Below the pieces are notes generated by a model that saw only the letters and a program-made list of their open reading frames with translations, did not search any database and had not been told where the DNA came from. DNA of 42,539 nt, from the IMG/VR virus record IMGVR_UViG_2897341779_000003; one strand, 5' to 3'. The stretch is from a virus (Duplodnaviria > Heunggongvirae > Uroviricota > Caudoviricetes). How positions within the stretch are numbered: the first letter of the stretch is position 1; each line of letters begins with the position of its first letter. The position numbers and the translations under genes were made by a program. Positions 647 to 42,539 of the stretch are shown here, piece after piece.

Positions 647-673
647 AAAAAATAAGCCCGTGTAAGGGAGATT
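647..673. other. prophage attL core (27 bp)
   Basis: AAAAAATAAGCCCGTGTAAGGGAGATT matches the P2 att core as I recall it; a second copy with 2 substitutions is at 36470-36496; int lies immediately inside. Confidence 0.75.
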
Positions 674-6839: not shown

Positions 6840-7169
6840 CTAAGCGGTAACGTTTTCCTCTTCTAGTTCGTCCATCATTTTTAAATAATGCATTTCGTCA
6901 CCAGTAGCTGAAAATATTGTTCTCAATTGTTTTAGGTATTTATCTGGGTCTATGTCGCCCATATCAGTAATATTTACCGCATCAGAGTGAGAACCTCTGT
7001 TAATGTATCTGTAGAATGCTTTGAAATCACTGTTGCTATCGTCGCGTGCCAACTTTGTTAATTCATCTTGTAGAGCATCTGTTCTATGAACAAATGCAAA
7101 ATAATATTCTAGTATGTTTCTCATAATATTCGGTATTATGATTTTGTTTGCTTTGCTGCGTATTTTCAT
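6840..7169 (-). pseudogene. 3' fragment (108-109 codons) of the IS-interrupted RloC/PrrC-like gene; candidate nuclease domain
   Basis: Reading frame is continuous with the 9706-11643 ORF once the IS is removed; contains R-x3-E (RNILE) followed by a downstream His, reminiscent of the anticodon-nuclease Arg-Glu-His triad; AT-rich. Confidence 0.55.
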
Positions 7170-7349
7170 GAAAGGAGATCACTCAATAACTTCCATCGAG
7201 ATCGGGTAATAACATTTGAACAGATCGCTGAATAACATCGATGGAGATCACTTTTGACTCATTTTGTTATTCAGTGATCTCCATCAATGTTATTGGAACT
7301 TCACAGGTGTGTTGATCTGTATCTTTTGCCATTCCGGTAAAGGATACCT

Positions 7350-8891
7350 ATGCCAACAGTTCCAATTTCTATGAGAAAACTTAAAGAAATTCTTAGGCTT
7401 AAATACGGTGTTGGACTCAGCCATCGACAAATTGGTCGTAGTCTTGCAATCTCCCCTTCCGTTGTATCCAGATATGCTAATCGGGCGGCTCAACTTGGCA
7501 TAAAGCAGTGGCCCTTACCTACAGGATGGGATGATACAAAACTAAAACATGCGTTCCTTCAGACCCAGGTTAAGATGAAGAAGCACTCTCTGCCTGACTG
7601 GGCTACAGTACACCGGGAACTGCGTAATAAATGCGTGACGCTGCAGCTACTCTGGGAAGAATACTGTGAGCGTAATCCAGGCGGTTTTTACAGCTATAAC
7701 CATTACTGCCGGATGTACCGTGAATGGCTCAAAACCACTTCACCATCAATGCGTCAGGTACATAAAGCTGGCGAAAAACTTTTCGTTGATTACTGTGGAC
7801 CTACCGTTGGCGTTACCGACCCTGAGACCGGAGAAATAAGAACTGCTCAGGTCATCGTAGCTGTTCTCGGGGCATCAAGTTACACATGGGCAGAGGCCAC
7901 CTGGTCTCAGCAGCTTGAAGACTGGGTGATGAGTCATGTTCGCTGCTTCCAGTGGTTGGGTGGCGTTCCTGAACTTGTTGTTCCGGACAATCTGAAAAGC
8001 GCCACATCCAGGGCATGTAAGTATGATCCTGACGTTAACCCTACCTACCAGCAGATGCTTGAGCATTATAATGTCGCAGTTTTGCCTGCGCGGCCACGTA
8101 AACCGAAAGATAAAGCCAAAGCTGAAGTTGGCGTTCAGGTTGTTGAACGCTGGATCATGGCCCGAATCAGGCATGAGATCTTCTACAGCCTTGCATCGCT
8201 TAATCAGCGCATTCGGGAGTTGCTGGAAAGACTGAATAACAAAATAATGCAGAAGTTGGGTTATTCACGTGCAGAACTCTTCATCCAGCTTGATAAACCC
8301 GCACTGAAGCCTCTTCCTGAAGCCAGTTACAGTTACACCCTGGTGAAGAAAGTCAGAGTTCATGCCGATTACCACGTGGAAATCGACAAACATTACTACT
8401 CGGTTCCATGTTCGCTGTTAGGCCAGCAACTGGAAGCATGGATCTCCGGAGAACTGGTAAGACTCTTCAATCAGGGGCAGGAGGTTGCTGTGCACCCGCG
8501 CAAGCGTACTTATGGCTACAGTACCCGCAACGAGCACATGCCTGAAGCTCATCGACAGCATGCCACCTGGACGCCAGAGCGTCTTCTGGAATGGGCGGGG
8601 CACATAGGCAGTGAAACTCATAGTTATGTGCTTCATATACTGAACTCTCGTCCACATCCGGAACAAAGCTATCGCTTCTGCCTTGGACTCCTGAACCTTC
8701 ATAAAAAATACAGTAAAGCCAGACTTAATGCAGCATGTGCAAGAGCTCTGAAAACAAAGGTATGGCGTCTGTCAGGTATTAAATCGATCCTGGAAAAAGG
8801 TCTGGATAAACAACCTGTTCAGGATCCAAAACCAGATCTGTTATCCACGATGGAACACGAAAACGTACGCGGCAGTGAGTATTACCACTGA
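7350..8891 (+). CDS. istA: IS21-family transposase IstA (513 aa)
   Basis: N-terminal HTH, integrase-core-like middle region; followed by istB with a short gap. Confidence 0.85.
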   Translation: MPTVPISMRKLKEILRLKYGVGLSHRQIGRSLAISPSVVSRYANRAAQLGIKQWPLPTGWDDTKLKHAFLQTQVKMKKHSLPDWATVHRELRNKCVTLQLLWEEYCERNPGGFYSYNHYCRMYREWLKTTSPSMRQVHKAGEKLFVDYCGPTVGVTDPETGEIRTAQVIVAVLGASSYTWAEATWSQQLEDWVMSHVRCFQWLGGVPELVVPDNLKSATSRACKYDPDVNPTYQQMLEHYNVAVLPARPRKPKDKAKAEVGVQVVERWIMARIRHEIFYSLASLNQRIRELLERLNNKIMQKLGYSRAELFIQLDKPALKPLPEASYSYTLVKKVRVHADYHVEIDKHYYSVPCSLLGQQLEAWISGELVRLFNQGQEVAVHPRKRTYGYSTRNEHMPEAHRQHATWTPERLLEWAGHIGSETHSYVLHILNSRPHPEQSYRFCLGLLNLHKKYSKARLNAACARALKTKVWRLSGIKSILEKGLDKQPVQDPKPDLLSTMEHENVRGSEYYH

Positions 8892-8902
8892 TACGGGATC
8901 CA

Positions 8903-9652
8903 ATGATGAATCATCTTTACGAACAACTGACCGCACTTAAACTCACCGGCTTCCGTGATGCGCTTAAAAAGCAACTTGCTCAGCCGGGCACATACCAGGA
9001 GCTGGGCTTCGAAGAACGCCTGTCATTACTGACAGCAGAAGAACTAACCTGCCGTGAAAACAGGAAGGCAGAGCGTCTGATCAAACATGCACGGTTCAGA
9101 CTTAATGCTGAGTTATCAAAGCTGGATTATCGTAACAATAGAGGGCTGGACAGGGCCCTCATCCGTTCACTCAGTCAGGGAAACTGGTTAACCCTGAAAC
9201 AAAATATTTTACTGACCGGGGCCACCGGCAGCGGTAAAACGTTCCTGGCATGTGCACTTGGTCATAATGCCTGCCGACAGGGATACAAGGTCTACTATTA
9301 TCGCCTTAAAGCGCTGATGGAACAGTGCTATCAGGGGCATGCTGATGGAAGATACAGCAAACTTTTGACCAGGCTGAATAATAGCGATCTGCTGCTTCTG
9401 GATGACTGGGGGCTGGAACCTCTCTCATCAGAACAGCGTAGCGACCTGCTGGAAATAGTGGATCTGATGTACCAACGAGGCTCAATCATCGTAGTGAGCC
9501 AGTTGCCGGTGGAAAACTGGTACAAAATGATCGGAGACTCCACACATGCGGATGCCATCCTAGATCGACTGGTTCATGGCAGTATCAAGATCGAACTTAA
9601 AGGAGAATCAATGCGGAAAATACAATCACCGTTGACCGAAGGAGATCAGTGA
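8903..9652 (+). CDS. istB: IS21-family helper ATPase IstB (249 aa)
   Basis: Walker A LLTGATGSGKTF and Walker B LLLLDDWG; DnaC-like architecture typical of IstB. Confidence 0.85.
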   Translation: MMNHLYEQLTALKLTGFRDALKKQLAQPGTYQELGFEERLSLLTAEELTCRENRKAERLIKHARFRLNAELSKLDYRNNRGLDRALIRSLSQGNWLTLKQNILLTGATGSGKTFLACALGHNACRQGYKVYYYRLKALMEQCYQGHADGRYSKLLTRLNNSDLLLLDDWGLEPLSSEQRSDLLEIVDLMYQRGSIIVVSQLPVENWYKMIGDSTHADAILDRLVHGSIKIELKGESMRKIQSPLTEGDQ

Positions 9653-9705
9653 AGGTAATTTAAAAACGGTTCTGTGAAAGTGACACGAACCGATCTCCAT
9701 CGATG

Positions 9706-11643
9706 TTACTCACCGATCTCCTTCACGGTAATACGCACTTTGCCATCTTTTGCATCTTTTAATATTTGCCACAAAGATTGATATTCATTCTGTATGCTGT
9801 TTTTTTGTATTTCAGTAATTATACTAAAATCATTTTTCGTTACTCTACCTAGATAATAGTTTTTCTTAAATAGTTTGTCTTCTCTGCTTTTAGGAGATAG
9901 CTTAATAAGTTCATGAAAGAAATAAAGATTGTGAGTAAGGATTAATACCTTCTTTGTTAATTCATTTTTTATAATGTGGTGATGAATAATTGATGCGATG
10001 TCGTAGACATAGTTTTGCGATAGACTAGATATTGGATCGTCAATAACAATAAAAATATCCCTGCTATCGGTATCATTTTTATCGGTTTTACCTTTACAGC
10101 ACTCTAAAAAATAAAGAAACGTTATTAGTGTTTTTTCACCTTCGCTAAGAGATCTATAAACATTTTGGTTTTTTGTATGCCCTGGTCGAGATATAATGTA
10201 CATATCTTTTCTTTCTGCATGTTTTTCAATACAAAAACCAGAGATCCCTAGATTTTTTAAATGGGTGTTTATTGAGTCTATCGTAGAATCAATGTTAGAT
10301 ATTTTATCTCGCAATGCTTTTATTGTGAGATTATTTTCTTTTCCTTGTTGCTCAATATTATTTAATTCATCATGAACTTTCTTTTTGATATCAAAGAATT
10401 TTTCTTTGTGTTTGGATAAATTCTCTAAATCATCGCTGCAAAAAGCATGGAGAGCCCCCCAAACTTGTTTTCCGATTTTATTCTCATACTCTTTGAGTTT
10501 TTTAACCTTATCATTTATGTCTCTTATTTTCTTGTTAACAGCGCCTATGCTTTCCTGAACATGATTTTCTAGTTCTTTATCAATTTCTAATGTAACGCAT
10601 GTTGATGGATTGTTGATCTTATCAATAATGTTTATTAAATTTTTTTCTGCAATGTTTTGCAATATTTTAATATTGGAAATAATGTTCTCTTTATCTTTCT
10701 CATTGATTAGTGCACATGATGATATATTGTTTTGTATTTCGTTAAAATGATATATGGTATTTTTCTCATAAACTGACTTTATATCTGAGAGCTGTTTTAC
10801 TTTCTTTGAATAACTTTCGTCAAATATTGATTTAAGGGCATTTAAAAATTCGTGACTAATAGTTTTTTCCTGACAAAACGGACATGTAGAACCGTCTAAA
10901 TAATGTTCTTTACCTTTTTTTACCCAGTCAAGATTATGAAGTTTATTAATGGTTTCTGATAAATAGCTATTGCTTGTATCTATTATAGGTGTTGCTAATG
11001 TATTTACATCATCAATTGATGGGGTATATGGATGTAAAGGAGTTATTAATGCGGTTTCATTGTTTCTATTTTCTAATAGTATAGAGTATTCTTTTGCTAT
11101 ATCATTTAAATTAATAAAGGTGATTGGTGAGGATGATTTTATCATCTCAAAAAAAGGTCTTTTATAGCCAACTTTACCTTTCATTAAGGTTTTTAGTACA
11201 GAGTTTCTGATTGGTTCTGTTTTTTTCCAGATCGATTCGATGTATTCATTTTCTTTTTTTTCCATTTCTGCTTCTAATTTCAATAACACTCCTTTTTTTT
11301 GTCTATATTGCTCTGTGAGTTGCTGTTTAATTGCTTCTTTTTCAATTAATTGTTTTTCAATATCTGCATTTTCTTTACTTAATGTAAAAACACCTTTTTG
11401 TTCCTGTGCATTATAGAAGTTATCTTCAATAAATTTAGTGTTGTAAACAAGAGGTTTGTAATTGTCAAGAAGGGTACATTCACACTCGTTATAATCTGTG
11501 TGTGTAGAGTCGTAGAAATAATTTGAAATGGTAGATTTGCCACAACCATTTTGGCCGTATAGTATGTTTACTCTTTTTTCAAGATTCAGTATTGTGAAGG
11601 CGTCTTTCTTATAACTGGTAACATTTTTTAATCTAAGTTCCAT
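9706..11643 (-). pseudogene. 5' portion (about 639 native codons) of a Rad50/ABC-type ATPase with CxxC hook, RloC/PrrC-like candidate defence gene, truncated by the IS
   Basis: Walker A GQNGCGKST, coiled-coil-like stretches, CPFCQ, ABC-signature-like LSEGEK, Walker B IFIVIDDP, H-loop LILTHN; the last 6 codons and the stop derive from the IS end; about 30% GC. Confidence 0.6.
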
Positions 11644-17959: not shown

Positions 17960-18469
17960 ATGATGACGCTGATTATTCCGCGAAAGGAGGCTCCCGTGTC
18001 CGGTGAGGGTACGGTGGTCATCCCGCAACCGGCAGGCGACGAGCCGGTGATTAAAAACACGTTCTTTTTTCCCGATATCGACCCGAAGCGCGTCCGGGAA
18101 CGTATGCGCCTTGAGCAGACCGTCGCCCCCGCCCGTCTGCGTGAGGCCATCAAGTCAGGCATGGCGGAAACAAATGCGGAGCTGTACGAGTACCGCGAAC
18201 AGAAAATTGCCGCCGGTTTTACGCGTCTGGCGGACGTTCCGGCGGACGATATCGACGGTGAAAGTATCAAAGTTTTTTACTACGAGCGCGCCGTGTGTGC
18301 GATGGCGACCGCGTCGCTTTATGAGCGTTACCGCGGCGTGGATGCCAGTGCGAAAGGAGACAAGAAGGCCGACAGCATTGACAGCACCATTGATGAGCTG
18401 TGGCGGGATATGCGCTGGGCAGTGGCGCGCATCCAGGACAAGCCGCGCTGCATCGTGAGTCAAATCTGA
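17960..18469 (+). CDS. L: head completion protein (169 aa)
   Basis: 169 aa from ATG 17960 with RBS GAGG; size as in P2 gpL. Confidence 0.85.
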   Translation: MMTLIIPRKEAPVSGEGTVVIPQPAGDEPVIKNTFFFPDIDPKRVRERMRLEQTVAPARLREAIKSGMAETNAELYEYREQKIAAGFTRLADVPADDIDGESIKVFYYERAVCAMATASLYERYRGVDASAKGDKKADSIDSTIDELWRDMRWAVARIQDKPRCIVSQI

Positions 18470-18672
18470 TGAAGACCTTTGCGCTACAGGGCGACACGCT
18501 CGACGCCATTTGTGTCCGGTATTACGGGCGCACTGAGGGCGTGGTTGAGACCGTGCTCGCCGCAAATCCGGGACTGGCTGAACTGGGTGCGGTGCTGCCA
18601 CATGGCTCCGCCGTCGAACTGCCCGACGTTCAGACCGCGCCCGTGGCTGAAACTGTCAATCTGTGGGAGTAA
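18469..18672 (+). CDS. X: tail protein X (67 aa)
   Basis: 67 aa from ATG 18469 (ATGA overlap with the L stop); size as in P2 gpX. Confidence 0.8.
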   Translation: MKTFALQGDTLDAICVRYYGRTEGVVETVLAANPGLAELGAVLPHGSAVELPDVQTAPVAETVNLWE

Positions 18673-18675
18673 CGC

Positions 18676-18957
18676 ATGACAGCAGAAGAAAAAAGCGTCC
18701 TGTCGCTTTTCATGATTGGGGTGCTGATTGTTGTCGGCAAGGTGCTTGCCGGTGGTGAACCCATCACCCCGCGTCTGTTTATCGGGCGCATGTTGCTCGG
18801 TGGTTTTGTCTCGATGGTTGCCGGTGTTGTTCTGGTGCAGTTTCCTGACCTGTCACTGCCTGCGGTGTGCGGCATCGGCTCCATGCTGGGTATCGCCGGT
18901 TATCAGGTGATTGAGATTGCCATTCAGCGCCGCTTTAAGGGCAGGGGGAAACCGTAA
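18676..18957 (+). CDS. Y: holin (93 aa)
   Basis: 93 aa with hydrophobic transmembrane segments and a charged C-terminus; precedes the endolysin. Confidence 0.85.
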   Translation: MTAEEKSVLSLFMIGVLIVVGKVLAGGEPITPRLFIGRMLLGGFVSMVAGVVLVQFPDLSLPAVCGIGSMLGIAGYQVIEIAIQRRFKGRGKP

Positions 18958-23286: not shown

Positions 23287-23809
23287 TTCGCGCCTGCTGC
23301 CGACCGGCTCATCACCGCTTGAAGTTGCCGCCGCAAAAGCCTGTGCGGAAATTGAAAAAACGCCGGTCAGTATTCGTGAGCTGTGGAACCCGGACACCTG
23401 TCCGGCAAATCTGCTGCCGTGGCTGGCGTGGGCGTTTTCTGTTGACAGGTGGGATGAAAAGTGGCCGGAAGCAACAAAACGCGCCGTTATCCGCGATGCG
23501 TATTTCATTCACTGCCATAAGGGCACTATAGGCGCAATCCGGCGTGTGGTGGAGCCGCTCGGCTATCTCATTAACGTAAAGGAATGGTGGGAGACAAACG
23601 ACCCGCCCGGAACCTTTCGCCTTGATATCGGTGTGCTGGAAAGCGGCATCACGGAGGAGATGTATCTGGAAATGGAACGGCTTATTGCCGATGCCAAACC
23701 CGCAAGTCGCCACCTTATCGGTCTGAACATTATCCAGGACATTCCCGGCTGTCTGTATACAGGCGGTGTGGTCTGTGATGGTGATGTTATTACTGTTTAT
23801 CCCGGATAA
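23279..23809 (+). CDS. I: baseplate protein I (176 aa)
   Basis: 176 aa as in P2 gpI. Confidence 0.85.
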   Translation: MSDSRLLPTGSSPLEVAAAKACAEIEKTPVSIRELWNPDTCPANLLPWLAWAFSVDRWDEKWPEATKRAVIRDAYFIHCHKGTIGAIRRVVEPLGYLINVKEWWETNDPPGTFRLDIGVLESGITEEMYLEMERLIADAKPASRHLIGLNIIQDIPGCLYTGGVVCDGDVITVYPG

Positions 23810-23819
23810 GTGAGAAACA

Positions 23820-26549
23820 ATGAGCACGAAATTTAAAACCGTTATCACTACTGCCGGAGCCGCAAAGCTGGCAGCCGCCACTGTCCCCGGCGGGAAAAAA
23901 GTAACCCTGTCTGCAATGGCCGTGGGTGACGGTAATGGCAAATTGCCGGTGCCGGATGCCGGTCAGACGAAACTGGTGCATGAGGTCTGGCGTCACGCTC
24001 TGAATAAAGTCAGCGTGGATAACAAGAATAAAAACTATATCGTGGCTGAACTGGTTGTACCGCCCGAAGTGGGCGGCTTCTGGATGCGTGAGCTTGGTCT
24101 GTATGACGATGCCGGAACACTGATTGCGGTATCCAACATGGCTGAAAGCTATAAGCCAGAACTGGCTGAAGGCTCCGGGCGTGCGCAGACCTGCCGCATG
24201 GTTATTATTGTCAGTAACGTGGCGTCCGTTGAGCTGAGTATTGATGCCAGCACAGTGATGGCGACGCAGGATTACGTCGATGACAAAATCGCAGAGCATG
24301 AGCAGTCCCGCCGCCATCCTGACGCCACGCTGACAGAAAAAGGTTTTACTCAGTTAAGCAGTGCAACAAACAGCACCAGTGAGTCATTGGCAGCAACGCC
24401 AAAAGCGGTCAAGGCAGCAAATGACAACGCAAATTCACGTCTGGCGAAAAATCAGAATGGTGCAGATATCCAGGATAAATCAGCTTTTCTGGACAATGTT
24501 GGCGTTACCAGCCTGACGTTTATGAAAAACAATGGCGAAATGCCGGTTGATGCTGATCTGAATACGTTTGGTTCTGTTAAGGCTTATTCAGGTATCTGGT
24601 CTAAAGCAACGTCCACCAACGCAACACTGGAGAAAAACTTCCCTGAAGATAATGCTGTCGGTGTGCTTGAGGTTTTTACTGGCGGCAATTTTGCAGGCAC
24701 GCAACGCTATACCACACGTGACGGAAATTTGTATATCCGCAAACTCATTGGAACATGGAATGGTAATGATGGACCATGGGGAGCATGGCGCCATGTTCAG
24801 GCTGTAACGCGAGCTCTAAGTACGACCATTGACCTTAACTCTCTCGGTGGCGCAGAACATTTAGGTCTATGGAGAAACAGCAGTTCAGCAATAGCTTCTT
24901 TTGAACGACATTACCCCGAGCAGGGAGGAGACGCGCAGGGCATTCTGGAAATTTTCGAAGGTGGGCTATATGGACGCACACAGCGTTATACAACCCGTAA
25001 CGGGACTATGTATATTCGCGGCCTGACAGCCAAATGGGATGCAGAAAATCCACAGTGGGAAGACTGGATCCAAATTGGTTATCAGACCAGTAGTACCTTC
25101 TATGAGGATGACCTGGATGATTTGATGTCTCCAGGTATTTACAGTGTGACAGGCAAAGCGACCCACACCCCAATCCAGGGGCAGTCTGGTTTTCTGGAAG
25201 TCATCAGGCGCAAGGATGGTGTCTATGTTTTGCAACGTTACACGACCACAGGAACCAGCGCAGCTACAAAAGACCGTTTATATGAGCGAGTGTTTCTTGG
25301 TGGCTCATTTAACGCGTGGGGGGAGTGGCGACAGATTTATAACTCAAACTCTTTGCCGTTAGAGTTGGGTATCGGTGGCGCAGTGGCAAAACTCACCAGC
25401 CTGGACTGGCAGACATACGATTTTGTGCCGGGCAGTCTGATAACCGTTCGGCTGGATAACATGACCAATATTCCCGACGGTATGGACTGGGGCGTCATTG
25501 ATGGCAACCTGATAAACATCTCAGTCGGTCCGAGTGATGATTCTGGTTCGGGACGCTCAATGCATGTATGGCGCAGCACTGTAAGTAAAGCCAACTACCG
25601 CTTTTTTATGGTGCGTATTTCAGGAAATCCGGGAAGCCGCACGATCACGACAAGACGTGTGCCAATTATCGACGAAGCCCAGACATGGGGCGCGAAACAG
25701 ACATTCAGTGCTGGCCTTTCTGGTGAACTGTCCGGCAATGCGGCGACAGCAACAAAGCTGAAAACAGCCCGTAAAATTAATAACGTTTCGTTTGATGGAA
25801 CATCAGATATTAACCTGACGCCGAAAAATATTGGTGCATTTGCTTCAGGAAAAACAGGAGACACCGTTGCGAATGATAAAGCCGTTGGATGGAACTGGAG
25901 TAGCGGAGCCTATAACGCAACTATTGGTGGGGCATCAACGTTAATTCTTCATTTTAATATCGGGGAAGGAAGTTGTCCCGCCGCCCAGTTTCGCGTTAAT
26001 TATAAGAACGGTGGTATTTTTTATCGTTCTGCTCGTGACGGTTACGGATTCGAGGCTGACTGGTCTGAGTTTTATACCACAACGCGAAAACCTACAGCGG
26101 GAGATGTCGGTGCACTGCCGTTATCTGGTGGTCAATTGAATGGTGCTCTGGGTATAGGAACATCCAGTGCTCTTGGCGGTAATTCGATTGTTTTGGGTGA
26201 TAATGACACGGGCTTTAAACAAAATGGTGATGGTAATCTGGATGTTTATGCTAATAGCGTCCATGTTATGCGCTTTGTCTCCGGAAGCGTTCAAAGTAAT
26301 AAAACCATAAATATTACGGGGCGTGTTAATCCCTCGGATTACGGTAACTTTGATTCCCGCTATGTGAGAGATGTCAGACTTGGCACACGTGTTGTCCAGA
26401 CCATGCAGAAAGGGGTGATGTATGAGAAAGCAGGGCACGTAATTACCGGGCTTGGTATTGTCGGTGAAGTCGATGGTGATGACCCCGCAGTATTCAGACC
26501 AATACAAAAATACATCAATGGCACATGGTATAACGTCGCACAGGTGTAA
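23820..26549 (+). CDS. H: tail fibre protein (909 aa), conserved N-terminus and a variable repeat-containing C-terminus
   Basis: N-terminal region including the QLSSATNSTSESLAATPKAVK motif shared by P2 H and lambda Stf-type fibres; three internal QRYTTR-G-Y-R-W-W repeats; longer than P2 H (about 669 aa). Confidence 0.85.
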   Translation: MSTKFKTVITTAGAAKLAAATVPGGKKVTLSAMAVGDGNGKLPVPDAGQTKLVHEVWRHALNKVSVDNKNKNYIVAELVVPPEVGGFWMRELGLYDDAGTLIAVSNMAESYKPELAEGSGRAQTCRMVIIVSNVASVELSIDASTVMATQDYVDDKIAEHEQSRRHPDATLTEKGFTQLSSATNSTSESLAATPKAVKAANDNANSRLAKNQNGADIQDKSAFLDNVGVTSLTFMKNNGEMPVDADLNTFGSVKAYSGIWSKATSTNATLEKNFPEDNAVGVLEVFTGGNFAGTQRYTTRDGNLYIRKLIGTWNGNDGPWGAWRHVQAVTRALSTTIDLNSLGGAEHLGLWRNSSSAIASFERHYPEQGGDAQGILEIFEGGLYGRTQRYTTRNGTMYIRGLTAKWDAENPQWEDWIQIGYQTSSTFYEDDLDDLMSPGIYSVTGKATHTPIQGQSGFLEVIRRKDGVYVLQRYTTTGTSAATKDRLYERVFLGGSFNAWGEWRQIYNSNSLPLELGIGGAVAKLTSLDWQTYDFVPGSLITVRLDNMTNIPDGMDWGVIDGNLINISVGPSDDSGSGRSMHVWRSTVSKANYRFFMVRISGNPGSRTITTRRVPIIDEAQTWGAKQTFSAGLSGELSGNAATATKLKTARKINNVSFDGTSDINLTPKNIGAFASGKTGDTVANDKAVGWNWSSGAYNATIGGASTLILHFNIGEGSCPAAQFRVNYKNGGIFYRSARDGYGFEADWSEFYTTTRKPTAGDVGALPLSGGQLNGALGIGTSSALGGNSIVLGDNDTGFKQNGDGNLDVYANSVHVMRFVSGSVQSNKTINITGRVNPSDYGNFDSRYVRDVRLGTRVVQTMQKGVMYEKAGHVITGLGIVGEVDGDDPAVFRPIQKYINGTWYNVAQV

Positions 26550-27146: not shown

Positions 27147-27258
27147 CTCTGTGCTAGGAGCGGACTGACCTGCTTCCCGATGATTAATACACAGCTATGC
27201 TAGTAATGTCCGTAGATCGCTGTGTGTTGCATCCATCGGTTGAACTCACAGTCCAAAC

Positions 27259-27302
27259 CAGACTGTCAGCTTTGATTAGATTCTACCTACTCAACCTGTC
27301 AG
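27259..27302. repeat. left copy of an about 45-bp imperfect direct repeat bracketing the G-FI cargo
   Basis: Framework CAGACTGTCAG-c/g-TTTGAT...TGTCAG, with the two TGTCAG elements 32 bp apart in both copies. Confidence 0.65.
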
Positions 27303-27501
27303 ATAAGGTCTGAGCTAATACATCTAATATATGGCTTCGTGCAGGGGACGGCTATCGCGAACGTTAGGCCAGGTATCTGAATACGCACAGTTCACTTGGT
27401 TGTACTTCTTGCACTGATCTGCTATCCCGCACAGCTATTTATAGGTAATCTTCAGTGTATAATCTGCCAACTTATGGAAGCTTGTACAACAGGAGAAATA
27501 T

Positions 27502-28344
27502 ATGAAAAAAGAATTGTTTGGACGTTGCCCGTTTGATCTTGACGAAGATGTAAAAAAAATAGCCGCGATAAATAAATATATCCATGCAAAATTTGAGGAG
27601 CATAAAAATAAAATAGACAACCTAAAGGGTGTGGAACAAAAATTGATGGTCTTACAGTACTTTAATGTACTGAATGAACTTAGTAATCAGGCTATCTCTT
27701 CTTTGAATATAGGAGCCTTTTCAGCATCGGAAGTATTAGCTAGGGTTATAATAGAACAGGCTGCCAATCAATTTTATATAGCAATAGATGATGGCGAAAA
27801 TGCACAAGCATTACTCAAGGCTAGTAAGAAATTAGTTCATAGTAATGGAAAACGGTGGCTGGAGTGTTTAAAATCCAAAGGAATGACTAATCCAGCAGCA
27901 AATGAAAGGATTCGCATGGGAAAAGAACTAACTGATCTATTTAATAGATTGTGGCCAAATACACCTGAATATCCAGGAACCAGAAGACTTTTTGAATTAA
28001 TTGGCTGGGAAACACACTATCATGCCCATTACGTTCCCCTTTGTGATTCAATACATACATTCTCTGATGATATGGTAAATATAGTATCTCTATATAATGC
28101 AATCCAAAGTGATGAAAATACTGCTATCGAATTCATTCTTGCAGTTAAACAAGAAAATAAACGGCTGGCAATTTATAATTTTGTAATTGCTACGGCCCTT
28201 CGGTGTGAGGCCTTAGTAAATGTATTTAACTCTTTAGGTTATCAGGATATTATAACAGAAATGACACCAACAATAGATACAGTCAACCAGACTATAATTC
28301 GATATGATGATTTTGATCATTCCAGAATTGATGATTGTCAATAA
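27502..28344 (+). CDS. hypothetical protein (280 aa), AT-rich cargo gene; candidate phage-defence or superinfection-exclusion effector
   Basis: RBS AGGAG 7 nt before the ATG; candidate -10 TATAAT at 27458-27463; no confidently recognised domain; C-terminal R-x5-H (RYDDFDH). Confidence 0.6.
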   Translation: MKKELFGRCPFDLDEDVKKIAAINKYIHAKFEEHKNKIDNLKGVEQKLMVLQYFNVLNELSNQAISSLNIGAFSASEVLARVIIEQAANQFYIAIDDGENAQALLKASKKLVHSNGKRWLECLKSKGMTNPAANERIRMGKELTDLFNRLWPNTPEYPGTRRLFELIGWETHYHAHYVPLCDSIHTFSDDMVNIVSLYNAIQSDENTAIEFILAVKQENKRLAIYNFVIATALRCEALVNVFNSLGYQDIITEMTPTIDTVNQTIIRYDDFDHSRIDDCQ

Positions 28345-28450
28345 TTAATTGACAGAATACGTACATGCGCAACAACTAGTGATAGTTGACTTATTTTCGC
28401 TCTTGAGAGACAACCATACTCAAATCTCCCACATTGCAGGAGATTTGAAT

Positions 28451-29035
28451 ATGAAAACGTCACCGTGGAATAAAGACCGTACCATCGGTCAAAAAAGGCC
28501 ACTTCAGATATTTCATATCTGGGGGATCCGGATTAGACTTGAGTTGGAAGGTAAAACACGCGATCTAGCTCTGTTCAACATGGCTTTGGACACTAAGCTA
28601 CGGGGCTGTGATTTGGTCAAACTCAAAGTATCAGATGCTGCATATGGCAGTTCTGTCTCAAGCAGAGCAACGGTGTTGCAACAGAAAACCGGCAGCCCTG
28701 TCCAATTTGAGATAACCAAAGGGACAAGGGAAGCGGTTACTGCATTGATAAAGCTCGGCAACTGGCATAGTAAAGGCTTCCTGTTCCGCTCTCGGGTCGG
28801 AACTAACCACCATATATCAACCCGGCAATACAACCGAATTTTTCATGGGTGGGTAGAAAAGCTTGGTCTCGAAGATTCGCTGTACAGCACACATTCCATG
28901 AGAAGAACAAAACCTTACTTAATCTACAAGAAAACCAAGAGTCTCCGGGTGATCCAACTTCTGTTGGGCCATAAGAAACTGGAAAGCACAGTCCGTTATT
29001 TGGGCATTGAAGTCGATATAGAAGGTCTCTTTTAA
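28451..29035 (+). CDS. small tyrosine recombinase, catalytic domain only (about 194 aa), FimB/FimE-like
   Basis: Catalytic residues present in order: Arg (LRGCDL), Lys (QQKTG), His-x-x-Arg (HSMRRT), His (LLGHKK), Tyr (VRYLG); RBS AGGAG before ATG 28451; no N-terminal DNA-binding domain. Confidence 0.7.
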   Translation: MKTSPWNKDRTIGQKRPLQIFHIWGIRIRLELEGKTRDLALFNMALDTKLRGCDLVKLKVSDAAYGSSVSSRATVLQQKTGSPVQFEITKGTREAVTALIKLGNWHSKGFLFRSRVGTNHHISTRQYNRIFHGWVEKLGLEDSLYSTHSMRRTKPYLIYKKTKSLRVIQLLLGHKKLESTVRYLGIEVDIEGLF

Positions 29036-29057
29036 GTTATGGGGGCTGATTTTATAT

Positions 29058-29447
29058 TCAATAGCGTATGCTCATCGAAGAAATAAACTCATAAAATGTA
29101 AAGACAGCCAGCAAAAACATACAGATAAAGATAAGGGAAATAGCACACTTAACTAAGGGCTGAACCCCCCGAGGTGTTCCCCATGGTTTAGACATTTGGG
29201 TTATAACCCAAATAAATAAGGCCACAAAACAGCAAACACCAGCCAATCCGAGCAGAGATATTATGACAACTCCAAACAGATTTCCAACATCTAGTTTATC
29301 TGTTTTTGCAACTAGGGTTAACAAACCAGCAATAATAGTTGCAATCGATATTCCCGCAATGGTTGTGAGATCGGCGATAACAGCCAGTTTTTCTTTAGTA
29401 TTTCCTTGAGTAAAGACCTCTAAAATTGATTTCATGGAAATAACCAC
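29058..29447 (-). CDS. small integral membrane protein (129 aa, 3-4 predicted transmembrane helices)
   Basis: Strongly hydrophobic segments throughout; AT-rich; opposite strand to the surrounding late genes. Confidence 0.55.
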   Translation of the reverse strand: MVISMKSILEVFTQGNTKEKLAVIADLTTIAGISIATIIAGLLTLVAKTDKLDVGNLFGVVIISLLGLAGVCCFVALFIWVITQMSKPWGTPRGVQPLVKCAISLIFICMFLLAVFTFYEFISSMSIRY

Positions 29448-29568
29448 CTACTATCGATTATATTCAGGAGCTTTTTATCATAACGATATCAGATAGATAA
29501 GGACATTGTAATATTTTGGATGATTTAAACTTGCTTTTGTAACTCTAATGTCCACTTTTCGCTCAAAG

Positions 29569-29612
29569 CAGACTGTCAGGTTTGATAGCATTTGGGCTAT
29601 GTAAATTGTCAG
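29569..29612. repeat. right copy of the about 45-bp imperfect direct repeat bracketing the G-FI cargo
   Basis: CAGACTGTCAGGTTTGATAG...TTGTCAGG; same internal spacing as the left copy. Confidence 0.65.
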
Positions 29613-36149: not shown

Positions 36150-36368
36150 ATGTTTCATTGTCCTTTATGCCAGCATGCCGCACATGCGCGTACAAGCCGC
36201 TATATCACTGACACGACAAAAGAGCGTTATCACCAGTGTCAGAACGTGAATTGCAGCGCCACATTCATCACTTATGAGTCGGTACAGCGATACATCGTGA
36301 AGCCGGGAGAAGTCCACGCCGTAAGACCGCACCCGTTGCCGTCAGGGCAGCAAATTATGTGGATGTAA
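36150..36368 (+). CDS. ogr: late transcription activator Ogr (72 aa, C4 zinc finger)
   Basis: 72 aa from the internal ATG; CPLCQ ... CQNVNC zinc finger; last phage gene before attR. Confidence 0.85.
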   Translation: MFHCPLCQHAAHARTSRYITDTTKERYHQCQNVNCSATFITYESVQRYIVKPGEVHAVRPHPLPSGQQIMWM

Positions 36369-36380
36369 TTACAAACAGGA

Positions 36381-36406
36381 AGCCCCTCAGTCGAGGGGCT
36401 TTTTTG
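36381..36406 (+). terminator. rho-independent terminator after ogr
   Basis: Hairpin GCCCCTC-AGTC-GAGGGGC followed by TTTTTT. Confidence 0.75.
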
Positions 36407-36469
36407 TCGATGTGGTCAATGTGTGGACGTGACCAGAAATAAATCCTTTTATTTCATTGTGTTACGCGT

Positions 36470-36496
36470 AAAAAATAAGCCTGCGTAAGGGAGATT
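36470..36496. other. prophage attR core (27 bp; 2 substitutions relative to the attL copy)
   Basis: AAAAAATAAGCCTGCGTAAGGGAGATT; forms the terminator of the adjacent sRNA gene. Confidence 0.7.
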
Positions 36497-36556
36497 ACAC
36501 AGGCTAAGGAGGTGGTTCCTGGTACAGCTAGCATTTTATGGGTTATGTTTTTCAGC
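36470..36556 (-). ncRNA. cyaR: CyaR (RyeE)-like Hfq-dependent sRNA, about 87 nt; its terminator overlaps the att core
   Basis: Minus-strand sequence GCTGAAAAACATAACCCATAAAATGCTAGCTGTACCAGGAACCACCTCCTTAGCCTGTGTAATCTCCCTTACGCAGGCTTATTTTTT agrees with my recollection of E. coli CyaR apart from 2 positions in the terminator stem. Confidence 0.7.
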
Positions 36557-36640
36557 GAAACGGATGATAACCTTAATAAATGCAGCTGTATGTGATCGGT
36601 TTCTAAGAATTTTCCATCCGGGAAAAATAATCGAAATTAA

Positions 36641-38002
36641 TCACTTACCGTGGGGGTTACGCGTGGTTTCCCCGGAGAAATTACGCATCAGCAGCGCGTA
36701 ATTTAGCTCAAGATCCTGCGGCACCGGGAGCCACACAGTATAACCATCGCCTGGTGCGACCGGCATCGCTTCACCTTTGGCGTTTTCCATATGCTCAAGG
36801 GTAAAGTTAATGTTGCCTTGCGGCGTCATCAGCTCAAGGCTGTCGCCAACGGAGAATTTATTTTTCACCGCTACCGCCGCGAGCTCCCCCTTGCGCTCAC
36901 CGGTAAACTCACCAACAAACTGCTGGCGGTCAGAAACCGAATAACCGTATTCGTAGTTCTGATAATCGTCGTGGGTATGACGACGCAGGAAACCTTCGGT
37001 ATAGCCACGATGCGCCAGACCTTCCAGCGTTTCCAGCAGGCTGGTATCGAACGGTTTGCCCGCAGCGGCGTCATCGATAGCTTTACGGTAAACCTGCGCG
37101 GTGCGTGCGCAATAGTAGAAAGATTTGGTACGGCCTTCGATTTTCAGCGAATGCACGCCCATTTTGGTCAGGCGTTCAACATGGGCGATGGCGCGCAGAT
37201 CTTTCGAGTTCATGATGTAAGTGCCGTGCTCATCTTCAAACGCGGTCATATACTCGCCCGGACGCTGGGCTTCTTCGATCATAAACACTTTGTCGGTTGG
37301 CGCGCCGATACCCAGCGTCGGCTCAACATTTTGCACCGGAATCGGCTCGTACTTGTGTACGATGTTGCCGACGTCATCTTCTTTCCCTTCCTGGACATTG
37401 TACTCCCAGCGGCAGGCGTTGGTGCAGGTGCCCTGGTTCGGGTCGCGCTTGTTGATATAGCCAGAGAGCAGGCAGCGACCGGAGTAGGCCATGCACAGCG
37501 CGCCGTGAACGAAGATTTCGATCTCCATATCCGGCACCTGATTGCGGATCTCTTCAATCTCTTCCAGTGACAGTTCGCGAGAGAGGATCACGCGGGTCAG
37601 ACCCATTTGCTGCCAGAATTTCACCGTCGCCCAGTTTACGGCGTTAGCCTGTACCGAGAGGTGGATTGGCATTTCCGGGAAGTGTTCACGCACCAGCATA
37701 ATCAGCCCTGGATCGGACATAATCAGCGCATCCGGCCCCATTTCCACCACCGGTTTCAGGTCACGGATAAAGGTTTTCAGCTTGGCGTTGTGCGGTGCAA
37801 TGTTGACCACGACATAAAACTTTTTCCCCAGCGCGTGGGCTTCATTGATGCCGAGCTGAAGATTTTCGTGGTTGAATTCGTTGTTGCGTACACGCAGGGA
37901 GTAACGCGGCTGGCCCGCATAAACAGCATCTGCGCCATAAGCGAAAGCGTAACGCATATTTTTCAGCGTTCCCGCCGGGGAAAGGAGTTCCGGTTTAAAC
38001 AT
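36641..38002 (-). CDS. yegQ: U32-family peptidase/hydroxylase, YegQ-like (453 aa)
   Basis: 453-aa ORF with RBS GAGAG; host-like GC content; U32 family and yegQ identity recalled from the N-terminus MFKPELLSPAGTLKNMRYAF and its position next to CyaR. Confidence 0.75.
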   Translation of the reverse strand: MFKPELLSPAGTLKNMRYAFAYGADAVYAGQPRYSLRVRNNEFNHENLQLGINEAHALGKKFYVVVNIAPHNAKLKTFIRDLKPVVEMGPDALIMSDPGLIMLVREHFPEMPIHLSVQANAVNWATVKFWQQMGLTRVILSRELSLEEIEEIRNQVPDMEIEIFVHGALCMAYSGRCLLSGYINKRDPNQGTCTNACRWEYNVQEGKEDDVGNIVHKYEPIPVQNVEPTLGIGAPTDKVFMIEEAQRPGEYMTAFEDEHGTYIMNSKDLRAIAHVERLTKMGVHSLKIEGRTKSFYYCARTAQVYRKAIDDAAAGKPFDTSLLETLEGLAHRGYTEGFLRRHTHDDYQNYEYGYSVSDRQQFVGEFTGERKGELAAVAVKNKFSVGDSLELMTPQGNINFTLEHMENAKGEAMPVAPGDGYTVWLPVPQDLELNYALLMRNFSGETTRNPHGK

Positions 38003-38489: not shown

Positions 38490-39704
38490 ATGACTGGAAA
38501 TATTCACCAGAATTATAATGCAAGGGATGTAATTAATGCCCCGGAAGTAAAAACAGCAATTTTGCAAAGAAGTCTGTTTCGCCAGGATAATGAGACCATC
38601 CAAAAATGGTTACTCAACCATTTTTATCGATGGCTAATTAGTGACTTTCCAATGGTGCAACAAATTAACTCGCTTGCAGAATATTCACTGTTTAATAAAA
38701 ATGATGATGTAATCCCGGAATGGCTGGTATCGAAGTTTAATACTGCCTCAGTATCAACTGCGACACTTTATTATATCGAAACCGATCATCAACAAATATT
38801 AACCAAAGAACGGGAGTTGGTGGAATTTCTTTCCAGGAAATGTGGTACCCGTCTGGAATCAAAACTACAGCGCATAACCTGCTACGTTGCGTTCAGAATG
38901 CGTGAAGAAGAGCATGAAAAGATGCTTCAACGACGCGAGAAAGGGTGGCAGCCGAGTGAACAAAATACTGTAAAGTCAATACTTGATGTGCCAGACGGAA
39001 AAATTGTTGAGTTTGATGCCAGTCATTCGAACCTTCGTCGTGAAATGGCTTATGAATCATGGCATATGCAACATTGCGTAGGCCAGTTTGATGATCGAAA
39101 AAATCTTACCGGTGGTTATGGTGAGTATTATGCAAATCAAATTGAGCAACATAAATTACGGTTATTCAGTTTGCGTGATAATAATAATATTCCTCATGTT
39201 ACTATTGCTCTCAATGTTGTTGGTGATTCACTTGAAATTGATCAAATAAAAGGTAAGCAAAATCGTCATCCAGTTAAAAAATATGCGGACGATGTTTTGT
39301 CTCTTTTGCAACTATTATCACCACAAGCAGTTCGACATAGTGATTGTGAAGGTATGGGTATTGTTTATGAAAATACACCTGAATATCAGGGGTGGAAATA
39401 TGTAACGGAAGTATACGAAACCAGTTTTTTACTAAGCGTACTACATAATAACTTTCATTTATTAGAACATTTTACAAATCCTTCAGTGGAGTTGCAGTGG
39501 TTACTGTTACACAGCGCACCTGATAAGTTACATTATCTTAATGCTATTGACCCTATAGTTGCTACTTCTGCGGAAATGTTATTCCCTGGCGCTGAGTGGC
39601 ATCCGCAATTTGCAGGTCAAAATATCAGCAACATTTCCTTTGAGATAGAGAGTTTGACATTACAGACATCTCATTACTTACCCCTGTCAGAGGTTGAAAA
39701 ATAA
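38490..39704 (+). CDS. hypothetical protein (404 aa), first gene of an AT-rich three-gene operon
   Basis: Long ORF with candidate sigma70 promoter (-35 TCAACA 38444-38449, -10 TATAAT 38467-38472); stop overlaps the next start (TAATG). Confidence 0.6.
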   Translation: MTGNIHQNYNARDVINAPEVKTAILQRSLFRQDNETIQKWLLNHFYRWLISDFPMVQQINSLAEYSLFNKNDDVIPEWLVSKFNTASVSTATLYYIETDHQQILTKERELVEFLSRKCGTRLESKLQRITCYVAFRMREEEHEKMLQRREKGWQPSEQNTVKSILDVPDGKIVEFDASHSNLRREMAYESWHMQHCVGQFDDRKNLTGGYGEYYANQIEQHKLRLFSLRDNNNIPHVTIALNVVGDSLEIDQIKGKQNRHPVKKYADDVLSLLQLLSPQAVRHSDCEGMGIVYENTPEYQGWKYVTEVYETSFLLSVLHNNFHLLEHFTNPSVELQWLLLHSAPDKLHYLNAIDPIVATSAEMLFPGAEWHPQFAGQNISNISFEIESLTLQTSHYLPLSEVEK

Positions 39705-40420
39705 TGAGTCTTATCATTGTTCTCCTGGTCGCAATATTTATTTTTATCTATAGATACAAAAAAAACAAACCACAAATCGATGCTTTTATTGCTAAAGAAA
39801 AAGAAAAGGATCTAATCAAGGACAAAAGACGAGCAACAAAGAGACGTAAGTGGGCATTAGCAATTGGTGATATAGTTGCTCGTCGTAATGGACTGTCAGT
39901 AAATGGCTTCACGTTAGATTTAAAGTTGACTGATGATAAGCGTCAACAACTTGCACTACAGGTTAAACAAGAGCTAGGAACAGAAACTTACCAAAGCAAC
40001 GAAGATTTCCGTCAACAAATTGGCGTTATATTACAGCGCTGGGCTACAGGGCTTGGTAATTCTCCACATGATTTTTACGAACAACTGGCAGCACAAGGCC
40101 AGGTTCTGGATGGGCTGGCGTTTGACTGTATGCGCACTGCTTTTTTAACTCGTTGCATCGCCGGTTTAGGCTGGTGCGATGAAAACCAGGCCTGGATAGT
40201 GTTATTACTGAATGCTCAAAGAGCACAAGATTGTTTCGCTTCATGGGAAGATTATGCCAGTGCTTATGTTCGCGCCCGACAAAAATGGTTAATGATATAC
40301 GATACCCCCGTCGCCACTGCGAACCGTGATTTAAAGGAAGTCACTGCATGGTTGAAAGATCCATCCAGTAACTGGAAAAAATTGCCGTGGAATGAATTTA
40401 AAATTTTTGAACCTAATTAA
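39704..40420 (+). CDS. hypothetical membrane-anchored protein (238 aa)
   Basis: N-terminal transmembrane helix (LIIVLLVAIFIFIY) followed by a basic linker; translationally coupled to the upstream gene; family (possibly DUF1266-like) is uncertain. Confidence 0.6.
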   Translation: MSLIIVLLVAIFIFIYRYKKNKPQIDAFIAKEKEKDLIKDKRRATKRRKWALAIGDIVARRNGLSVNGFTLDLKLTDDKRQQLALQVKQELGTETYQSNEDFRQQIGVILQRWATGLGNSPHDFYEQLAAQGQVLDGLAFDCMRTAFLTRCIAGLGWCDENQAWIVLLLNAQRAQDCFASWEDYASAYVRARQKWLMIYDTPVATANRDLKEVTAWLKDPSSNWKKLPWNEFKIFEPN

Positions 40421-40430
40421 AAGGATATCT

Positions 40431-42539
40431 ATGGAACAGGATGCTCGTTTACTCAGTGCAATGCAAAAGATGTGTGACCAAAAAATGCCACTTAATACTC
40501 TTGAGAGAAAATGGCAAATCGCAAATATTCCTTATATGTTACAAGAAAAACGTTATCAGGAACTAGATGAAATTTATAACCAGGTATTACAGGAGAGTTT
40601 CACTTCTCGTCAGGCTGAAAAGCGCTATTTTTTATCCTGGACCCAAATGTGCAACTATTTTTATGATATGAACACGCTAGTTGATGCCGGAACAGAAGGT
40701 TTAAGACTCATTAAAACCTGGCAGCAAGCAAGACCTCATTCTACACATGCCTGGCTTGCCGAAGCACAATACTGGAATCACCGTGCATGGTTATATCGCA
40801 GTTATGGCTGGGCAAATGATACCACACATGCAATGTGGCTTTGTGCTGGTGCATGTAATGAACAAATGGTCATCGCTACACTTAAAGCAATTGATTGTGA
40901 CCCACGACAATGGATGGCTGCATTACTTACCAGCACCAACTCAAAAGTATTTGGTCAGCCAGCCTGGCTGGCGGCACACCTTAACGGTGATAGTGTCGCA
41001 GGAATACCATTAATGATCGCACTGAAAAATTATCACCGCCGCTCCCCGCAAGAAGTGGAAGCGTTGATGGCGTATTCCGGACTTTCGTTTGAGCATGCAA
41101 TATGCCCCGTTTTGCCTCGCCCCAATATACTTCCTGAGTATGATGATGATGGTGGGCAAAAATATTGGCTTTCTGTTTGCCTGACTATTTTTCCTCACAC
41201 TTTTTATCCTTTTGTTGAATATATACCATTTCGAATGCCACGCTGGGGAGGGTCGCATAAAGAAATTTCCGAATTGCTGGATTCAGTAACCTGTAAGCAC
41301 TTATCTACCGAAGAACATGACTATATGGATCTCTTACTTTGGTGGGATGATTACCGAGATGTCAGCATTGAGGACATTGCGCCCGAGGAGCAACAATATG
41401 CAATCGACTTAGCAGAGAATATTGCTCAGTACGCACAATTTCAGGAATGTCGCCATAATGCCCTAGAGTGGTTACTTGCCTGCTATAACAAGCAGAACGA
41501 TCACGATAAGTTGTGGTGCTGTATACAGCGAGCGGTGATGGAAGACATGAAGCTCAATAATTATTACACTGCGTACGCGATAAAATTTGCATTAAGTTAT
41601 TATCCAGATTCATTCTGGATATATAATTTTATCTGCCAAAATTCACAGAATACAACTTATGCTACACCTGTTATTTATAGGGGGTTTTTCCAGCGAGAGG
41701 GTATTTTGGGTTTTGAAAAAGATGAAGGGCAGGGCGATGCTTGGCTGGAAAAAGCTAGTGACATTAAATACAATCATAATTGGCGGTCGGCAATAAAAGA
41801 TTTGAGTTGGTTTGACCTTTCTGATTATTTCATTCCGCTTGCGACAATTGGTAAGCAAAGAAATATTCCTGCCGCATTAAATTTAGTTGCTCTTGAATAT
41901 TTGGATAAGGAAGACAATACAAAATTACCTTATGAACCATCTACAGCTTTGGAGTATTTTCGACGGGCACTTAAAATACTTCAAGATGACCTAAATTTCC
42001 ATAGCTCGGTATCTTATCCACTGGTAAAAAATTATGGTTATAGCGAACATCAACAAGATCTACAAAATATTTATTTTAGCATTGCTATCTGCTACCAGGC
42101 ACTAAATAAACAAGAAATTTCTAAAGAAACACGGGCTATTTATGAAAAAAATCTCCTTGACAATTTATTTCTGGCTCATGAAGCTGGACATGAAAAAGCA
42201 TGGGGGCTTTTTTTACTTAATATCTTTGAGGTGAAAGAACTCTCACTTGCTCATTTGCACCTCCAACAGGTACAAGAAGAAGCGAATAAAGGTACGCTCG
42301 AAGCAATGATTACTTTGTCGCGCCTGTATGGTAACAAAGAAGATGAAAAACTGTTTAACATGAAACTCAGTGCGCGCTGGACACATTTTGCCGAGTCTTT
42401 ATATCCAGATAACGAAATTATTGCAGATTGCCTTTATCATCTCCATTTCTCCAGCCTGTGGAAACGCTGTCGTTATGCCTGGTATACCTTTCGTATTCCA
42501 GCTAGCGAATTACCCGGCCAGGTTAACAGTATGGTGTAA
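40431..42539 (+). CDS. hypothetical protein (about 702 aa), Trp-rich N-terminal region and a TPR/Sel1-like C-terminal region
   Basis: ATG 40431 preceded by AAGGA; the ORF-track start 40392 is in the same frame and overlaps the previous gene; TAA stop at the window end. Confidence 0.6.
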   Translation: MEQDARLLSAMQKMCDQKMPLNTLERKWQIANIPYMLQEKRYQELDEIYNQVLQESFTSRQAEKRYFLSWTQMCNYFYDMNTLVDAGTEGLRLIKTWQQARPHSTHAWLAEAQYWNHRAWLYRSYGWANDTTHAMWLCAGACNEQMVIATLKAIDCDPRQWMAALLTSTNSKVFGQPAWLAAHLNGDSVAGIPLMIALKNYHRRSPQEVEALMAYSGLSFEHAICPVLPRPNILPEYDDDGGQKYWLSVCLTIFPHTFYPFVEYIPFRMPRWGGSHKEISELLDSVTCKHLSTEEHDYMDLLLWWDDYRDVSIEDIAPEEQQYAIDLAENIAQYAQFQECRHNALEWLLACYNKQNDHDKLWCCIQRAVMEDMKLNNYYTAYAIKFALSYYPDSFWIYNFICQNSQNTTYATPVIYRGFFQREGILGFEKDEGQGDAWLEKASDIKYNHNWRSAIKDLSWFDLSDYFIPLATIGKQRNIPAALNLVALEYLDKEDNTKLPYEPSTALEYFRRALKILQDDLNFHSSVSYPLVKNYGYSEHQQDLQNIYFSIAICYQALNKQEISKETRAIYEKNLLDNLFLAHEAGHEKAWGLFLLNIFEVKELSLAHLHLQQVQEEANKGTLEAMITLSRLYGNKEDEKLFNMKLSARWTHFAESLYPDNEIIADCLYHLHFSSLWKRCRYAWYTFRIPASELPGQVNSMV

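Follow-up and report, generated by a model that had tools for sequence, protein, structure and literature searches.

Integration of P2 at cyaR, and the re-supply by an element of the 3' end of the RNA gene that it enters, are both already established. The primary P2 site at cyaR is presumably the one named locI. Elements in structured RNA genes cross over at the loop and supply the 3' part of the gene (Reiter 1989; Williams 2002). Integrases that use tRNA or tmRNA genes (186 in tRNA-Ile, HP1 in tRNA-Leu, Fels-2 and SopE-phi in ssrA) likewise carry the 3' part of the RNA gene and recombine at a stem-loop, and 186-type P2-like phages rebuild their target RNA gene with element-derived 3' sequence (PMC3448106). 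'cyaR RNA' is listed as a P2-type insertion site in E. coli W, K-12 and B (PMC3032704). At cyaR, in contrast to these tRNA-like folds, integration is into the intrinsic terminator hairpin of an sRNA that depends on Hfq, and the identity block is only 27 bp. A P2 remnant in K-12, ogrK-yegZ ('cryptic prophage PR-X', RefSeq 2167183-2167811), overlaps the last 18 nt of cyaR (2167114-2167200).

The window, by which the whole analysed stretch of 42,539 nt is meant, was found to be 100% identical to E. coli JCM 20135 over positions 1-42466 and to match closely the ST95-type strains UTI89, APEC O1 and S88. The P2 gene order (int-C-cox, portal/terminase, then tail genes-D-ogr) could be followed in the ORF map up to attR, and collinear annotated prophages were present in EC69, SF-468 and JCM 20135. 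P2 itself (AF063097) resembles the window in Int (100%), in the attL core and in the placement of ogr at the attR side and int at the attL side; the window prophage differs from P2 in carrying ISEc12 and different cargo genes. The segment from ogr to the core is 95.9% identical to P2. No tRNA or tmRNA genes were found within the window. The host flanks and the main prophage features are as follows.

1-318, plus strand: yegR, left host flank (annotation in matching genomes)
674-36469: P2-type (Peduovirus) prophage body with the ISEc12 insertion (ORF map; collinear annotated prophages)
753-1766, minus strand: int, tyrosine integrase beside attL, 337/337 amino acids identical to P2 Int (AAD03297)
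36150-36368, plus strand: ogr, late-gene activator and last prophage gene, collinear with the P2 ogr CDS
36380-36401: ogr terminator stem-loop (terminator scan)
36641-38002, minus strand: yegQ/trhP, right host flank (annotation in matching genomes)

The 27-bp core (AAAAAATAAGCCYGYGTAAGGGAGATT) is present in exactly two copies in the window, at 647-673 and 36470-36496, and was matched 0 times in 100 shuffles. Compared with the attP core annotated in P2 (AF063097, 24356-24382), the attL copy is identical at 27/27 positions and the attR copy at 25/27. P2 and K-12 both read CCCGTG in the core, from which the window attR differs by two substitutions (CCTGCG). An earlier note on this DNA, made from the sequence alone, had read CCCGTG at attL and CCTGCG at attR with both differences to the right of position 12, and this was borne out, with core positions 13 and 15 alone affected. 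The right junction lies within cyaR.

647-673, plus strand: attL core copy, AAAAAATAAGCCCGTGTAAGGGAGATT, reading CCCGTG, the same sequence as in the P2 attP core and the unoccupied ST95 site
36402-36469, plus strand: phage P arm between the ogr terminator and the core, aligned to the annotated P2 record
36470-36496, plus strand: attR core copy, AAAAAATAAGCCTGCGTAAGGGAGATT, reading CCTGCG, 25/27 bases of the P2 attP core
36482 (T) and 36484 (C), plus strand: variable core positions 13 and 15 at attR; the attL copy has C at 659 and T at 661
36473-36558, minus strand: cyaR (ryeE) sRNA gene, full-length match to the Rfam model RF00112
36478-36505, minus strand: CyaR intrinsic terminator hairpin with an 11-bp stem and a 6-nt loop (minus-strand terminator scan)
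36470-36477, minus strand: CyaR U-tract directly after the hairpin, tail UAUUUUUU

An arm-type Int site (GTGTGGAC) lies in the P arm at 36421-36428 and further ones (CTGTGGACACTGTGTGGACAC) in the P' arm at 761-781, the consensus for P2-like phages being tgTGGaCa (PMC3448106). An A/T-rich region of the P arm aligns with the annotated IHF site of P2. By cmscan, CyaR_RyeE (RF00112) was matched over model positions 1-85 of 85 at 36558-36473 on the minus strand, scoring 100.2 bits where the gathering score is 47 (E = 5.5e-19). CyaR therefore maps here, and the placement of a P2-type prophage inside its terminator, as claimed from the letters alone, was upheld. So was the claim that the attR core doubles as terminator stem and U-tract, since the terminator scan returned the hairpin at 36505-36478 followed by UAUUUUUU; when the attR core is read on the minus strand, the U-tract comes from positions 1-9, the 3' stem strand from 9-19 and the loop from 20-25. 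The synteny of cyaR is kept, with yegQ/trhP adjoining on the same strand (36641-38002) as in K-12. A sigma-70 consensus scan of 36300-36700 returned no promoter-like site, such a scan being uninformative for activator-dependent promoters. The region 36470-36556 is confirmed to be the ordinary attR of a P2 prophage, situated in the 3' end of cyaR.

Both alleles were folded to compare their pairing. The pairs formed with the E. coli 5' stem strand (GCCUGUGU) are U-A and U.G for the attR allele and U.G and U-A for the attL/host allele, and the same 11-bp hairpin was predicted for the two, at -18.7 kcal/mol (z = -5.5) for attR and -18.4 kcal/mol for attL. The swap of a wobble and a Watson-Crick pair within a fully paired stem, as originally proposed, was thus recovered. 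All four alleles at positions 13/15 fell within 1.1 kcal/mol of each other (-18.0 to -19.1). Since each of the two positions faces a U on the 5' strand, a change between A and G on the 3' strand always leaves the pair intact, and the retained pairing is therefore no evidence for compensatory selection. The two-base difference is real but, by these predicted folds, of no consequence for the hairpin, and CyaR termination is expected to be unchanged by the allele.

From the position of the differences, the earlier note had concluded that the strands were exchanged in the left part of the core and that the host site carried the CTGCG variant before integration. Under that reading, exchange would have occurred within core positions 1-12, the CCCGTG of attL would stem from the phage and the CCTGCG of attR from the ST95 host. 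The comparison with empty sites, set beforehand as the refuting test, found ST95 relatives to carry CCCGTG like the phage. The unoccupied yegR-cyaR site of UTI89 reads CCCGTG, and its left (674 nt) and right (649 nt) flanks match the window with 0 differences, which shows a host without CTGCG; the unoccupied sites of further ST95 strains likewise read CCCGTG. S88, an ST95 strain with a different P2-type prophage, has a 1.6-kb right flank identical to that of the window and also CCCGTG. An unoccupied site of the ST95 haplotype with CCTGCG gave no exact match in 5,426 genomes.

In E. coli at large, CCTGCG accounts for roughly 0.1% of unoccupied sites, with none seen in the ST95 background. Four genomes (510016, LH13-b, 2018-11-1BCC and AJ1) have it at an unoccupied site, which rules out its absence from all E. 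coli unoccupied sites, shows that a host of this species may carry it and to that extent favours exchange in positions 1-12. Against this, the left flank of these four sites differs by 2 SNPs (98.7% identity) and belongs to another haplotype than ST95, and the E. coli carriers of CCTGCG diverge from the window right flank from 36582/36653 onward. Import of CCTGCG on the host side by homologous recombination was considered and rejected, as the 1.6-kb right flank equals that of S88 and no foreign footprint is seen to the right of the core.

The segment in which strands are exchanged could be mapped with two complete E. coli genomes, EC11 and UTAK-6, which carry a related P2-like prophage at cyaR. 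Prophages of this type (attP ...GGGCGTTT) share with the window the cyaR target, homologous arms, an Int that is 85% identical to the window Int and the CCTGCG of the window attR. They differ in the P and P' arms, and at positions 23 and 25 their core has other bases than the host sequence, which makes the exchange segment mappable. At attL, the E. coli left flank is followed by AAAAAATAAGCCCGTGTAAGGG, CGTTT and the P' arm (junction ...CCCGTGTAAGGG to CGTTT), and at attR the P arm is followed by AAAAAATAAGCCTGCGTAAGGG, AGATT and cyaR (junction ...CCTGCGTAAGGG to AGATT). Host CCCGTG (positions 13-15) is therefore joined to phage CGTTT (23-27) at attL, and CCTGCG to host AGATT at attR, so that the exchange must fall after position 15 and before position 23.

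36485-36491 (attL 662-668), plus strand: putative strand-exchange (overlap) segment GTAAGGG, core positions 16-22, placed from the EC11 and UTAK-6 junctions

Seven base pairs is the usual overlap size of tyrosine recombinases, and for the integrase of the window too the exchange most likely falls in GTAAGGG, judging from these relatives. For this family of phages, the variation present in public genomes thus narrows the exchange at cyaR to a 7-bp segment.

The same phage type in IMG/VR was found with CCCGTG in 7/7 attL junctions beside the E. coli left flank and with CCTGCG in 17/17 beside other enterobacterial left flanks (hypergeometric p = 1/346,104 for these 24 junctions). In E. albertii, where the reference (L350) has CCTGCG at the site, a lysogen with a P2-type P' arm and the same flanks (L028/L115) reads CCTGCG at attL and CCCGTG at attR. 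From the junctions of related lysogens, positions 13-15 were shown to be linked with the left flank. The placement of the exchange in the left core part AAAAAATAAGCC (positions 1-12) was consequently contradicted on two counts: EC11 and UTAK-6 put it to the right of both differences, with a host CCCGTG joined to phage CGTTT at attL that is impossible under exchange in 1-12, and the E. albertii lysogen too keeps the species' CTGCG at attL, with CCCGTG at attR. Hosts with the left flank ...gaacaggatgaaagtcgtggtaca (L066, L070, L082, L391 and L199) were set aside as evidence, their native allele not being known.

E. coli of the ST131 type provided a further comparison. Its unoccupied site (JJ1887, L461) reads CCTGTG, giving a perfect stem, and in its lysogens L086/L150 and L097/L187, attL reads CCTGTG and attR CCCGTG; L217 of the same lineage likewise has CCTGTG at attL. 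NZ_OZ039653.1 (L467), the flanks of which are identical to JJ1887, has the reverse, with CCCGTG at attL and the host-type CCTGTG at attR; CCTGTG is also found at attR in L194. The pattern in OZ039653 is what exchange in positions 1-12 would give, yet with the host-side and junction evidence set out above that reading is very improbable for the window. Two candidate explanations may be given for OZ039653, namely a recurrent C-to-T change at position 13 templated by the quasi-palindrome, or a position 13 that lies inside the overlap. The former is favoured because all heteroallelic position-15 cases keep the host allele at attL.

The latter would have a consequence for the window, as positions 13 and 15 might both lie inside a 6-8-bp overlap (e.g. 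13-19) whose heteroduplex segregates both ways, with CCTGCG carried by the phage. One daughter would then have the host allele at attL and the phage allele at attR, the other the reverse, and the window would be one such daughter. The reciprocal position-13 patterns within one host lineage (L086/L150, L097/L187 and L217 against OZ039653) agree with this. The reversed cases, however, are all C-to-T at position 13 in sites that hold both stem arms, a change expected from quasi-palindrome templating because the inverted repeat becomes perfect, and the lysogens heteroallelic at position 15 (E. albertii, EC11, UTAK-6/L133 and L275/L289) all have the host allele at attL and the phage allele at attR. 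Moreover, two mismatches within a 7-bp overlap usually block tyrosine recombinases, as in lambda Int. Segregation from such an overlap is regarded as unlikely.

The history that we consider probable is integration at cyaR with exchange at the loop end, a host allele of CCCGTG, and CCTGCG on the phage side of attR. The P2-type prophage sits at the primary E. coli site of P2, the 3' end of cyaR, and the phage attP carries a copy of the last ~27 nt of the gene (loop, 3' stem strand and U-tract). Strand exchange by Int would take place at the loop end of the copied block, most likely within GTAAGGG, so that attL would retain the host copy of positions 1-15 and the phage copy would complete cyaR at attR. 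The ST95 host site read CCCGTG before integration, as attL does now, and the CCTGCG of attR would either have been brought in by the integrating attP or have arisen later on the phage-side segment. Given exchange at the loop, the 3' stem strand and U-tract of CyaR in the lysogen would be phage-side DNA.

The origin of CCTGCG itself bears on this history through close relatives of the prophage. In EC69, where prophage and host background are the same, both ends read CCCGTG, and the two core bases are the only differences from the window over 4,010 nt around attR; the two bases are therefore no obligatory crossover signature. In a different host, 2021CK-01784, the same prophage lineage also has CCCGTG at attR. 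The usual attP allele of the lineage therefore looks like CCCGTG, which counts against the history favoured here and, together with the free P2-type phages, is a point in favour of exchange in positions 1-12. No free phage with CCTGCG in its attP was found in 50,697 phage records, the best match to the reconstructed attP being 98.0%. The only IMG/VR match to a phage with P arm, CCTGCG and P' arm, L028, proved to be an E. albertii attL beside a fossil P arm. An SNP in the P arm (cattgtGttacgcgt) was also tried as a marker linked to the core allele and rejected, the same P arm occurring 5 times with CCCGTG and 3 times with CCTGCG.

These comparisons could also be accounted for by a CCCGTG phage that entered a CCCGTG site, with CCTGCG arising later in one ST95 sublineage by double substitution or by short-patch conversion from another P2-like element. 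Besides EC69, with its CCCGTG ends and otherwise identical 4,010 nt, this would fit the presence of other short recombination patches relative to EC69 (18229-18724 and 23.6-25.8 kb) and the finding that the examined CCTGCG carriers of this prophage all have the same ST95-type right flank. There is, however, no CCTGCG donor in cis, attL being CCCGTG; the known P arms with CCTGCG differ within <=15 nt of the core, which would limit a conversion tract to <=35 bp; and it is improbable that two independent substitutions would fall 2 bp from each other while the rest of the 4 kb had none. Templated mutation at the quasi-palindrome was rejected as a source, as it would yield CCTGTG rather than CCTGCG, and it is still a candidate for the CCTGTG alleles. 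EC69 also differs from S88 and from the CCTGCG clade at host position 37397, and independent acquisitions of the prophage are therefore allowed, which again argues against a change after integration. On balance such a change is rather improbable. Three possibilities are thus seen for the origin of CCTGCG: a phage population polymorphic in its core, an EC69 homogenised from its attL, or the change after integration.

The 27-mer was identified in scans of metagenomes, IMG/VR and GTDB species representatives as the conserved 3' end of cyaR across the Enterobacteriaceae. For sites without a P arm, the alleles at positions 13-15 were tabulated against the plus-strand DNA to the right of the core, which encodes the 5' stem strand.

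CGC with ACGCAGGC, n = 38: Klebsiella, Enterobacter and Raoultella
TGC with ACGCAGGC, n = 37: Citrobacter, Salmonella and Kosakonia; stem perfect
CGT with ACACAGGC, n = 9: E. coli and others
TGC with ACACAGGC, n = 5: including Escherichia sp. E1V33; the combination of the window attR

The cyaR allele native to Citrobacter, Salmonella and some Escherichia species is accordingly CCTGCG, and that of Klebsiella and Enterobacter is CCCGCG; E. albertii has TGC beside a remnant resembling a P arm. At attR, 87 CGT and 4 TGC alleles were found beside the E. coli-type 5' strand, and 23 TGC, 8 CGC and 2 CGT beside the other type. The alleles of P2-like phages at positions 13/15 thus track the 5' strand of the host genus, with CCCGTG in E. 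coli and CCTGCG or CCCGCG with GCCUGCGU. A homology requirement within the overlap would produce such tracking, and this counts in favour of an overlap that includes positions 13 and 15. In favour of a phage-side allele, CCTGCG also follows the P arm across hosts, with L230 and EC11 (E. coli) sharing their P arm with L285, L274 and L233, whose cyaR 5' strand is of the non-E. coli type ACGCAGGC.

CCCGTG together with the GCCUGCGU 5' strand was found in 0/75 GTDB representatives at sites without a P arm. Two P2-type prophages in IMG/VR, L275 and L289, nevertheless have CCCGTG at attR although the host 5' strand is GCCUGCGU, which likewise supports exchange to the right of position 15. A C x A mismatch is predicted in their CyaR terminator (-14.5 against -20.6 kcal/mol), and lysogeny may here weaken an sRNA terminator.

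The history of the site itself extends further back than the present prophage. On the host side, the left flank of the core aligned with the phage P arm.

595-646, plus strand: host-side left flank, a decayed P arm with a 16-bp deletion, 75-89% identity to 36402-36469

K-12 retains a full P arm, ogrK and yegZ at the equivalent of 595-646. As the left flank of the 'unoccupied' site is a decayed P arm, the E. coli site is a fossil attR, as are most cyaR loci of the species, and by this alignment the 3' stem strand and terminator half of E. coli CyaR may be largely phage-derived. A wider reading, offered tentatively and held at somewhat less than even confidence, is that selection for a functional CyaR terminator in the host shapes the phage core, in line with the tracking of the host 5' strand by phage alleles, and that a mismatched core such as that of the window is the fingerprint of a recent host jump; this includes a CyaR 3' end that is phage-derived in almost all E. 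coli. A terminator half of phage origin could matter for studies of 3'-end variation, Hfq binding and read-through. With regard to junction analysis, a difference between attL and attR cores is no mark of the crossover without the unoccupied site and attP, and its naive reading here led to the wrong side of the core.

Several further features of the prophage and its surroundings were noted. Relative to EC69, substitutions are gathered in patches at 18229-18724 (5 in 500 bp) and 23600-25800 (~40, in the tail-fibre gene), which from their sequence look like recombination with other P2-like phages. APEC O1 carries a more heavily rearranged mosaic with the right end and the CCTGCG attR of the window. 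A cargo island at 27254-29612, between the tail-fibre assembly and tail sheath genes, encodes a DUF5677 protein (27502-28344), a short Phage_integrase-family protein (28349-29035) and an unassigned ORF of 129 aa. An imperfect direct repeat of 49 nt with 71% identity (27254-27302 and 29564-29612) flanks the island, on which PADLOC returned no matches. To the right of yegQ, 38490-42539 is an island of three genes (PcfJ-like, DUF1266 and DUF4034) common to the ST95-type genomes examined; K-12 and 510016 have yegP directly, and EC11 and UTAK-6 carry a RelE/ParD toxin-antitoxin pair instead. ISEc12 (IS21 family; istA 7350-8891, istB 8903-9652) at 7157-9737 splits a single cargo gene into pieces at 6840-7169 (the C-terminal ORF) and 9706-11643. 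The split gene encodes an AAA_13 ATPase that matches the candidate defence family PDC-S06 (E = 4.7e-208); it is intact, at 2,217 nt, in EC69, SF-468 and Z0117EC0054, and JCM 20135 has the insertion of the window.
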